From Escherichia coli (GTDB lineage Bacteria > Pseudomonadota > Gammaproteobacteria > Enterobacterales > Enterobacteriaceae), in the NCBI RefSeq assembly GCF_030013205.1, contig NZ_CP122648.1: a stretch of DNA of 64,000 nucleotides; one strand, 5' to 3'. The position numbers were made by a program. Shown in pieces: positions 33,001 to 36,000 of this stretch; the stretch's first letter is position 1; each line of letters begins with the position of its first letter.

Positions 33001-36000
33001 GACAAAAATTGCGCAACTTTTTCCTGCTCACTGTGAGTCATGTTGTCTATTGCGCTGATGATTTGCCGATAAGCAGGAGTGCGAATCCCCGGTGCGTATT
33101 CGGCAAGGGGTTCTTCGGCTTCCAGAAGCATCGGCGTGTTATGGAAGGCTGGCGTGTTCTGAATAAACTCGCAAACTTGCGTATCGACCAGAATAAGTCT
33201 GGCACGACCGCCTTTCACGCCGGGAAATTTTTCCGTTTTCCAGCCTTTTTCTCTGATCCAACGGTTAACAGTTTGTTTAGCCACACCGAGGCATTCAGCC
33301 AGTTCTTCGGTGGTCATTTTATTGCGTAATCTTTTCATATTATTTGCTATCGCGAATCCCTAAGCGTTGTAACAATCCGATAATCCCTTCCCGCAGAAGC
33401 AAGGATGTAAACTGTTTTTGTTCAACTGGCGTCATCTCTTTCGCCAGTGTCACCAGCAATACTTCAAGCGGCGCATCACCAGAAAGGGCAGGCGCTTCTC
33501 CCTGACCTTCTGGACGTTCAGCATTGCGAATATATTCACGAACCTGTTCATTGACGTGAACCAGTCGGGCTTTGCCACCCTGGACGCCAGGTTTTGGTGA
33601 CGTTGTCCAGCCTTCCTTGCGTACCCATTTATTAATGGTCTGGCGGCTATAGCCGGTCAGTCTGGCAAGTTCATCTGGCGTCATCCTCTCCTTGAACATA
33701 ACAATTCCCTGAATGTATGTGGGTCTATTAGTAGTTCATTTTATAACACCACTTTACAGGAAACCGTGACATGAATAACTACTGAATGCGAGCGGTTTTC
33801 CAAAATTGTTCATTTGCCTGATTTTTCAGCGATTGAAACTACACGTTGCAATTTGCCGTTGACACATTCGGGCGGAATTCATATGATGCCGCCCGTCAAC
33901 TCGACAAGCTTTACGTGACGGGGCTATAGCTCAGCTGGGAGAGCGCTTGCATGGCATGCAAGAGGTCAGCGGTTCGATCCCGCTTAGCTCCACCAAATTT
34001 CCAACCCTCGCTGCAAAGCGGGGGTTTTTTGTCTCTGCTTTTTGCCGCTTTTGTAATACAGTCTACGTCCGGGTTAGCGCCGCCTGGTGAAAGCATCATT
34101 GGATGAAAAATCGGCAACAGGCTGGCCCCTGTTTGCTTCGCGATGCGAATAAACTTATTATTTGTGTGCCTGAAAACCCCGATCAGTGAGAGTAGTGTAC
34201 TCATGTTTGTGGAGCATAACCTGATAAAAAATATCAAGATATTCACACTAGCGTTTACGCTCACCGTGGTACTTATTCAGCTATCCCGTTTTATTTCGCC
34301 ACTTGCCATTATCCATTCCAGTTATATCTTTCTGGCGTGGATGCCACTGTGCGTAATGCTGTCAATCTTGTTTATCTTTGGCTGGCGCGGTGTCGTTCCC
34401 GTTTTATGCGGGATGTTTTGCACCAATCTGTGGAACTTTCATCTCTCTTTTTTACAGACCGCGGTCATGCTCGGCAGCCAGACGTTTGTTGTGTTGTGTG
34501 CCTGCGCAATATTACGCTGGCAGCTGGGGACGCGTTGGCGTTATGGATTGACCAGCCGATATGTCTGGCAACGTCTTTTCTGGCTTGGTTTGGTGACGCC
34601 GATCGGCATCAAATGCAGCATGTATCTTGTGGGGAGCTTTTTTGATTTCCCGCTAAAGATATCCACCTTTTTCGGCGATGCGGATGCCATTTTCACAGTC
34701 GTTGATTTACTAAGCCTTTTCACCGCTGTGCTGATTTACAACATGCTTTTCTACTATCTCACTCGCATGATTGTAAGTCCCCACTTTGCGCAGATATTGT
34801 GGCGCAGGGATATCGCTCCGTCGTTGAGCAAAGAGAAACGCGCATTTACCTTAAGCTGGCTGGCAGCTCTTAGCGTGCTGCTACTTCTGATGTGCACACC
34901 GTATGAGAATGACTTTATTGCCGGTTACCTGGTACCTGTTTTCTTTATCATCTTTACCCTCGGTGTCGGTAAGCTTCGCTATCCGTTTTTAAATCTCACC
35001 TGGGCTGTTTCAACGCTTTGCCTGCTGAACTACAACCAGAACTTTTTGCAAGGGGTACTAACCGAATATTCGCTGGCATTTATTCTCGCGGTGCTGATTT
35101 CCTTTAGTGTTTGCCTGCTCTATATGGTGCGCATTTATCATCGCAGTGAATGGCTTAATCGCCGCTGGCATTTGCAGGCGCTGACCGATCCGTTAACGCT
35201 CCTACCCAACTTTCGTGCGTTAGAACAAGCGCCGGAGCAAGAGGCGGGCAAGAGTTTTTGCTGCCTGCGCATTGATAATCTTGAGTTTATGAGTCGTCAT
35301 TACGGCTTAATGATGCGCGTTCACTGTATCCGATCAATTTACCGTACGCTGCTGCCGTTGATGCAGGAAAACGAAAAGTTGTATCAATTGCCGGGTAGTG
35401 AACTGCTGTTAGTGCTGAGTGGACCGGAAACGGAAGGGCGACTCCAGCATATGGTTAACATCCTGAATAGTCGGCAAATTCACTGGAACAATACCGGGCT
35501 GGATATGGGCTATGGTGCTGCCTGGGGGCGTTTTGATGGAAATCAGGAAACCCTGCAACCCTTGTTGGGGCAGTTAAGCTGGCTGGCGGAGCAATCCTGC
35601 GCACATCACCATGTGCTGGCGCTGGATAGCAGAGAGGAGATGGTTTCCGGGCAGACCACTAAACAGGTGCTATTGCTGAATACCATTCGTACGGCGTTAG
35701 ATCAGGGTGATTTGCTGCTCTACGCCCAGCCAATTCGCAACAAAGAGGGTGAAGGTTATGATGAGATCCTCGCGCGACTGAAATATGACGGCGGCATTAT
35801 GACCCCGGATAAGTTTCTGCCCCTTATTGCTCAGTTTAACCTTAGCGCGCGTTTTGATTTGCAAGTGCTGGAATCCTTGTTGAAGTGGCTGGCAACACAC
35901 CCTTGCGACAAAAAAGGTCCGCGCTTTTCAGTCAATTTAATGCCGCTCACGCTGCTGCAAAAGAATATTGCCGGGCGGATTATTCGTCTGTTTAAGCGTT

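Follow-up and report, generated by a model that had tools for sequence, protein, structure and literature searches.

One tRNA-Ala(GGC) gene in place of the alaW-alaX pair in an Escherichia coli genome: a probable loss by misalignment of tandem repeats

Introduction

The question raised by a stretch of 64,000 nucleotides (nt) of Escherichia coli DNA (contig NZ_CP122648.1 of assembly GCF_030013205.1; hereafter, the window) is why it carries a single transfer RNA (tRNA) gene for alanine with anticodon GGC, tRNA-Ala(GGC), at the site where K-12 has two of them, alaW and alaX, in tandem. An earlier note, made from the sequence alone, had pointed out this difference and considered it plausible that one copy was lost by recombination between the tandem genes. 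From the analysis described here, it is proposed that the locus in the window is the alaW-alaX operon, cut from two identical genes to one by misalignment of the repeats, a reading to which we assign a probability of about 0.86. The one-copy state is an ordinary, recurrent and already-sequenced minor polymorphism of this tandem tRNA pair, and belongs to a known kind of variation.

A single gene at the alaW-alaX locus

Using ARAGORN, five tRNA genes were detected in the window, and exactly one of them is a tRNA-Ala(GGC); the remaining four are the homologues of valU-valX-valY-lysV, located at 29078-29475 on the minus strand. The tRNA model of Rfam (RF00005) matches the tRNA-Ala gene at 33920-33995 with 63 bits and, within 28000-35000, it detected the five tRNAs reported by ARAGORN and no further one. 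Likewise, both strands of the window were searched with a script for another copy of either tRNA-Ala gene half and for 15-mers of the spacer that separates alaW from alaX, and none was detected. The three approaches agree on one tRNA-Ala(GGC) gene, located upstream of pdeA as the earlier note had it, and none of them revealed a second copy that could have been overlooked.

K-12 does carry adjacent alaX and alaW genes, as stated in the earlier note. In the MG1655 record alaW (2518156-2518231) and alaX (2518041-2518116) are found in tandem between yfeC and pdeA, and both genes are present in the same arrangement in W3110, i.e., the reference has two copies at this place. A one-copy W3110 was suggested by Table 3 of PMC4678842, where only alaW is listed; this candidate was rejected, given that the W3110 record has both genes and the table omits alaX. 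The window and the alaW-alaX operon of MG1655 (b2397, b2396) share the site, both flanks and 100% of the tRNA sequence; the difference is that the window has one gene, and lacks the 39-bp spacer and one 76-nt gene. Synteny with K-12 is conserved, with the tRNA gene between yfeC and pdeA, and near gltX and valU-valX-valY-lysV. What is found in the window is one gene instead of the tandem pair that characterises the alaW-alaX unit; this is a variant feature, and it gives no reason to doubt orthology. The elements of the locus are the following:

33920-33995, plus strand: single tRNA-Ala(GGC) gene, an alaW/alaX hybrid indistinguishable from either parent (ARAGORN; Rfam RF00005; identity to MG1655)
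33920-34000, plus strand: 81-bp segment, formed by the tRNA gene and the AATTT that follows it, of which the tandem form has two perfect direct copies; the point of crossover or slippage is predicted to lie inside it (script, alignment)
33859-33887, plus strand: putative promoter of the alaW(X) unit, with a -35 box TTGACA at 33859-33864, a 17-nt spacer and a -10 box TATGAT at 33882-33887, followed by the GC-rich stretch GCCGCCCG (consensus scan)
34003-34036, plus strand: predicted intrinsic terminator of the unit, which in K-12 is the alaX-distal flank, with a 10-pair stem, a GCAA loop and a T-run (terminator scan)
33340-33699, minus strand: yfeC, divergent upstream neighbour and synteny anchor (list of open reading frames; annotation of strain ETEC4079; same in K-12)
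34203-36392, plus strand: pdeA (yfeA), downstream neighbour and synteny anchor (list of open reading frames; annotation of ETEC4079; same in K-12)

The surviving gene has 76 nt with an encoded CCA end and the anticodon GGC at positions 34-36, and it is identical in 76 of 76 positions to MG1655 alaW and to alaX. In the acceptor stem, positions 1-7 (GGGGCTA) pair with positions 66-72 (TAGCTCC), so that the G3:U70 pair, which is the identity element for alanyl-tRNA synthetase, is present. The promoter-like site matches the consensus in 11 of 12 positions and has the same sequence in genomes with the tandem form; from these data we infer that it is a near-consensus sigma-70 promoter of the tRNA unit. 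The sequence of the predicted terminator hairpin is also unchanged in tandem-form genomes, and according to both scans the window would keep the promoter as well as the terminator that belong to the alaW-alaX unit. The surviving tRNA gene is intact and should be expressed normally. A weaker terminator-like hairpin (6 pairs and a T-run; 34116-34133, minus strand) lies between the tRNA terminator and pdeA, and may be there by chance.

Geometry of the deletion and proposed mechanism

An alignment was made of the window, the tandem form of strain K_EC180 (whose flanks are identical to those of the window), a K-12-like genome and the one-copy strain 2313. A single gap of 115 bp separates the window from the tandem form, and the rest is conserved. 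The missing 115 bp correspond to one 76-nt tRNA gene plus the 39-bp spacer, that is, to exactly one repeat period. In the tandem form, 81 bp are repeated perfectly and in direct orientation at an interval of 115 bp, and a deletion of 115 bp introduced at any of 82 registers yields the sequence of the window exactly. No filler or scar was found at the deletion junction, either in the alignment or with the script, and the surviving gene keeps the promoter-side flank of alaW together with the terminator-side flank of alaX.

Given that exactly one period is gone, that the endpoints are in perfect homology, that there is no scar and that reciprocal three-copy arrays exist, the loss would be repeat-mediated; the loss of the 115-bp period with endpoints in the 81-bp repeat supports the earlier suggestion that recombination between tandem tRNA genes is a plausible cause. 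It is proposed that the two 81-bp direct repeats, placed with a period of 115 bp, misalign and that exactly one period is removed, either by RecA-dependent unequal sister-chromatid exchange or by RecA-independent replication slippage. The product would be a single intact hybrid gene with the alaW promoter and the alaX terminator, and misalignment in the opposite direction would give rise to three-copy arrays. The one-copy array holds no repeat, making reversion by the same route impossible. RecA-dependent exchange and replication slippage are both known to act on repeats of such a length in E. coli; Lovett and colleagues reportedly showed that tandem repeats of approximately 100 bp are deleted or expanded in this organism by unequal sister-strand exchange or by slippage. 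The sequence is compatible with either pathway, and when compared with the general process of deletion and expansion of short tandem repeats, the loss of one period, the endpoints in perfect homology and the three-copy reciprocals have nothing unusual.

Copy number across E. coli

The frequency of each copy number was estimated in 5,426 complete E. coli genomes by means of three diagnostic probes. A 79-nt probe centred on the spacer, which detects two or more copies, matched 5,291 genomes; a 196-nt probe formed by the tRNA gene and 60 nt at each side, which detects the colinear one-copy form, matched 132 genomes; and a spacer-tRNA-spacer probe, which detects three or more copies, matched 51 genomes (for these last two probes a match over at least 80% of the length was demanded). 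The one-copy strains EC581, EC556 and EC571 escape the 196-nt probe, given that an insertion sequence (IS), IS200C, is located directly after the terminator. The counts can be reconciled as follows: 135 genomes are without the spacer and one of them is without any match to the locus, leaving 134, and the 132 genomes plus the three interrupted by IS200C give 135; BL21(RP), which is among the 132 and yet has the spacer elsewhere, would explain why the two totals are not equal. Species-wide, the estimate is approximately 132-135 genomes with one copy (~2.4-2.5%), ~5,240 with two (~96.6%) and 51 with three or more (~0.9%). The three inspected three-copy arrays were found at the same locus and in the same 115-bp register, and these arrays would be the reciprocal expansion products of the tandem repeat.

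Among the one-copy strains are O157:H7 EDL933 (in three assemblies and derived stocks), Xuzhou21, O111:H8 2009C-3675, KO11FL, the K-12 laboratory strains MC1061 and OV2, the porcine strain UMNF18, several porcine enterotoxigenic E. coli (ETEC), and others. Public one-copy alleles, such as those of EDL933 (CP008957.1), MC1061 (CP195014.1), KO11FL, 2313, ETEC1748 and ETEC1716, are alike in the 115-bp deletion and in the 196-nt junction region, but they differ in the chromosomal background, in the alleles of pdeA, yfeD and gltX, and in the presence or absence of an IS605-family insertion. For instance, strain 2313 and ETEC1716 have the same deletion as the window without the IS200/IS605-family insertion, and with different alleles of pdeA, yfeD and gltX. 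MC1061 has one copy whereas MG1655 has two, even though the proteins GltX, YfeD and PdeA and the IS421 neighbour are the same in both; similarly, in O157:H7, EDL933 has one copy and Sakai has two. Because sister strains differ, and flank haplotypes differ as well, the loss is recurrent and has occurred independently in scattered strains; independence was judged from these two kinds of comparison. The fact that the sister strains of both pairs (MC1061/MG1655 and EDL933/Sakai) differ also shows that the copy number changes on short timescales.

A three-copy array was also observed in NZ_CP081489.1, NZ_CP083274.1, NZ_CP083273.1 and NZ_CP081008.1, which are neighbouring accessions for BL21(DE3), Rosetta2-DE3, BL21-RIPL and XL10-Gold, and the BL21(DE3) reference NC_012971.2 has two copies. 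This may be a true difference between laboratory stocks, or the repeat may have been over-expanded by a single pipeline.

The porcine ETEC clone of the window

Over 29000-64000 the window does not differ in any base from porcine ETEC4079 (NZ_CP122643.1, Belgium), and over 1-25000 the two are 100.0% identical. A full-text literature search gave no paper on ETEC4079. The clone to which it belongs was defined as 17 genomes of porcine ETEC/O139:H1 with 25-kb flanks ~100% identical to those of the window; their copy numbers are:

One copy (n=5): ETEC4079, ETEC1748, EC581, EC556, EC571
Two copies (n=10): K_EC180, P15-25, W13-16, ETEC4067, 4069, 4070, 4071, 6333, 6334, 1701
Three copies (n=2): ETEC4068, ETEC4075

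Within the clone, the one-copy state comes from two projects, one Belgian/Dutch and the other Japanese (EC581, EC556, EC571). A perfect score over the 25-kb flanks is common to the two-copy genomes K_EC180, ETEC4069, 4070 and 4071 and to the one-copy genomes ETEC4079 and ETEC1748, and the Japanese one-copy genome EC581 scores below several two-copy genomes. Because perfect-score genomes with one and two copies coexist and EC581 scores lower, these data suggest, but do not prove, that more than one loss occurred within the clone.

Gene dosage and function

The tRNA-Ala(GGC), for which alaW and alaX are the only genes, is the cognate reader of the codon GCC, and it also reads GCU. No GGC tRNA-Ala gene was found elsewhere in ETEC4079, where the 196-nt probe matches in one place only. 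Given that there would be one tRNA per transcript instead of two, and that ETEC4079 has no other GGC tRNA-Ala gene, the gene dosage of this tRNA is halved; the change in dosage anticipated by the earlier note follows from having one gene instead of two at the sole site for this tRNA in ETEC4079.

The closest experimental comparison is a study of deletions of tRNA transcription units (PMC11480407), in which the same alaWX unit was fully removed. According to this study, the alaWX unit is non-essential, but cells from which it is fully deleted grow significantly worse in minimal medium (M9 glucose) and show changes in the expression of 530 genes, with the fim genes up and the flagellar genes down. 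The study also indicates that alaT, alaU and alaV, which have the anticodon UGC, are not upregulated to compensate for the loss of alaWX, and that the modified U34 of the UGC tRNAs still allows GCC and GCU to be decoded (PMC11480407). Since even the loss of both genes is viable and slows growth in minimal medium, the effect of halving the dosage is probably mild, and milder than that of the full deletion. Like the strains compared here, E. coli strains often differ by one tRNA gene copy in either direction, and McDonald et al. 2015 (PMC4539685) describe this as common. In the available portions of PMC4539685 and PMC11480407, the one-copy alaW/X allele is not singled out and no one-copy strain is tested; likewise, alaW/X is not dealt with in the eLife study on translational redundancy (PMC9981150).

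Given that reversion by the same route would be impossible, and that deletions recur even in laboratory strains, the fact that the one-copy state is found in only ~2.4% of the genomes suggests, in a qualitative way, a weak purifying selection against one copy or in favour of two.

Alternative explanations

It could be argued that one copy is the ancestral state and that the pairs of K-12 and other genomes are later duplications, given that the window alone cannot polarise a single copy; this logical possibility is all that favours it. In an outgroup scan of one genome per bacterial species, in which the 3' end of the tRNA had to be followed by a gap of 20-50 nt and then by the 5' end of the tRNA, a tandem pair was found in at least 120 other species of Enterobacterales, including E. 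albertii, Salmonella enterica subsp. arizonae, Citrobacter, Enterobacter, Klebsiella, Kluyvera, Pectobacterium and Dickeya; Edwardsiella showed two adjacent matches, i.e., three copies. This result, the presence of the spacer in nearly all the E. coli genomes, and the existence of one-copy genomes beside two-copy sister strains with identical flanks leave an ancestral single copy with so little probability that it is regarded as refuted. Since the outgroups and 96.6% of the E. coli genomes have two copies, two is the ancestral number and the state of the window is a derived loss, not a missing duplication; we treat this polarity as shown. The cause of the loss could also be sought in a mobile element, considering that two IS200/IS605-family elements, one beside yfeD and the other (IS200C) beside pdeA, are located less than 3 kb from the tRNA gene, and that the Japanese members of the clone carry IS200C directly after the tRNA terminator. 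Nevertheless, exactly one repeat period is missing, the junction contains neither IS sequence nor a target duplication, and the deletion endpoints do not coincide with IS ends; the identical deletion is present in strain 2313, ETEC1716 and MC1061, which lack both elements, and members of the clone with the same elements keep two copies, making it extremely improbable that these elements caused the deletion.

A different possibility is that the assembler collapsed the 115-bp repeat and the strain truly has two copies. The 81-bp repeat is perfect, and a repeat of this length is long enough to loop in the graph of a short-read assembly made with small k-mers; in addition, the Belgian/Dutch project mixes one-copy (ETEC4079, 1748 and 1716) and three-copy (ETEC4068, 4075 and 4073) genomes, and the BL21(DE3) and XL10-Gold assemblies, whose accessions are neighbours, have three copies although the BL21(DE3) reference has two. 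On the other hand, the collection is formed by complete genomes, which we assume to come mostly from long reads that span the 230-bp array; one copy was repeatedly obtained in the three separate assemblies of EDL933 and its derivative stocks, the Japanese project has one copy in the same clone, and ETEC4079 and ETEC1748 agree, and from this evidence an assembly artefact is considered unlikely. It has also to be considered that a lower dosage of tRNA-Ala(GGC) was selected in the porcine ETEC lineage, with the array acting as a dosage switch, instead of a neutral or slightly deleterious drift. The copy number is other than two in 7 of the 17 genomes of the clone, compared with ~3.4% species-wide, and the increase of fim and the decrease of flagellar expression that follow the full deletion of alaWX (PMC11480407) concern traits that are relevant to an enteric pathogen. 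However, two or three events followed by common descent could be enough to enrich the clone in this way, gains and losses both occur, as would fit an undirected instability, no phenotype is known for one versus two copies, and the one-copy state is rare in the species, scattered, and present in recent laboratory derivatives; an adaptive loss is judged to be decidedly improbable.

The loss of one copy by repeat misalignment has points against it as well. This work was carried out on assembled sequences only, and a collapse of the 115-bp repeat is possible for this genome; some copy-number calls in the database, such as the three copies of the BL21(DE3) and XL10-Gold assemblies when the BL21(DE3) reference has two, are suspicious; the argument for purifying selection is qualitative and assumes that deletions arise repeatedly; and the papers on alaWX, in their available sections, address the zero-copy state only, and not one versus two copies.

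Other features of the region

The element between gltX and yfeD belongs to the IS200/IS605 family, covers approximately 31265-32906, and consists of a degenerate tnpA pseudogene and an intact open reading frame of 402 residues for insQ/TnpB (31698-32906). At this place there is none in K-12, strain 2313 or ETEC1716, and it is present in Sakai, where it is annotated as IS609, and in EDL933. A copy of IS200C is found at 36422-37130 (tnpA at 36574-37032), between pdeA and nupC, and from the annotation of ETEC4079 a second one, which differs from the first by at least one base, is expected near 62356-62814, between yfdV and yfdE. In EC556 (L019 1515-2432), EC581 and EC571, IS200C is located right after the T-run of the tRNA-Ala terminator and before pdeA, at a place that corresponds to ~34031 of the window.

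Another difference was observed at the side of lysV. A 156-bp unit, located downstream of this gene in K-12 and ETEC1748, is missing from the window at 28970-29095, between the stop codon of xapR (28969) and the 3' end of lysV; it is also absent in ETEC4079. In ETEC1748, this unit is annotated by the Prokaryotic Genome Annotation Pipeline as 'RtT sRNA' (126 nt). A direct repeat of ~60 bp, which takes in the 3' end of lysV and its terminator, flanks the unit, and because of this repeat the difference is regarded as a second repeat-mediated indel, at 5 kb from the one that affects tRNA-Ala.

Implications

The idea that the alaW/X array could act as a fast and partly one-way dosage switch (three, two and one copies), operating within single clones and on epidemiological timescales, is very doubtful; if it were true, the switch would shift the capacity to decode GCC and GCU, and could alter fimbriation and motility, which respond to the full loss of alaWX. 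As a loss of one copy by misalignment, the locus is a clean example of identical tandem tRNA genes that gain and lose copies, and by itself it matters little. Lineages should not be typed by the copy number of alaW/X, and for draft assemblies this number needs to be confirmed with the reads. The survey provides usable frequencies of copy number for this locus across E. coli, and it reveals that EDL933 and MC1061, two strains in common use, have only one tRNA-Ala(GGC) gene, which is relevant to models of codon decoding and to the comparison of strains.

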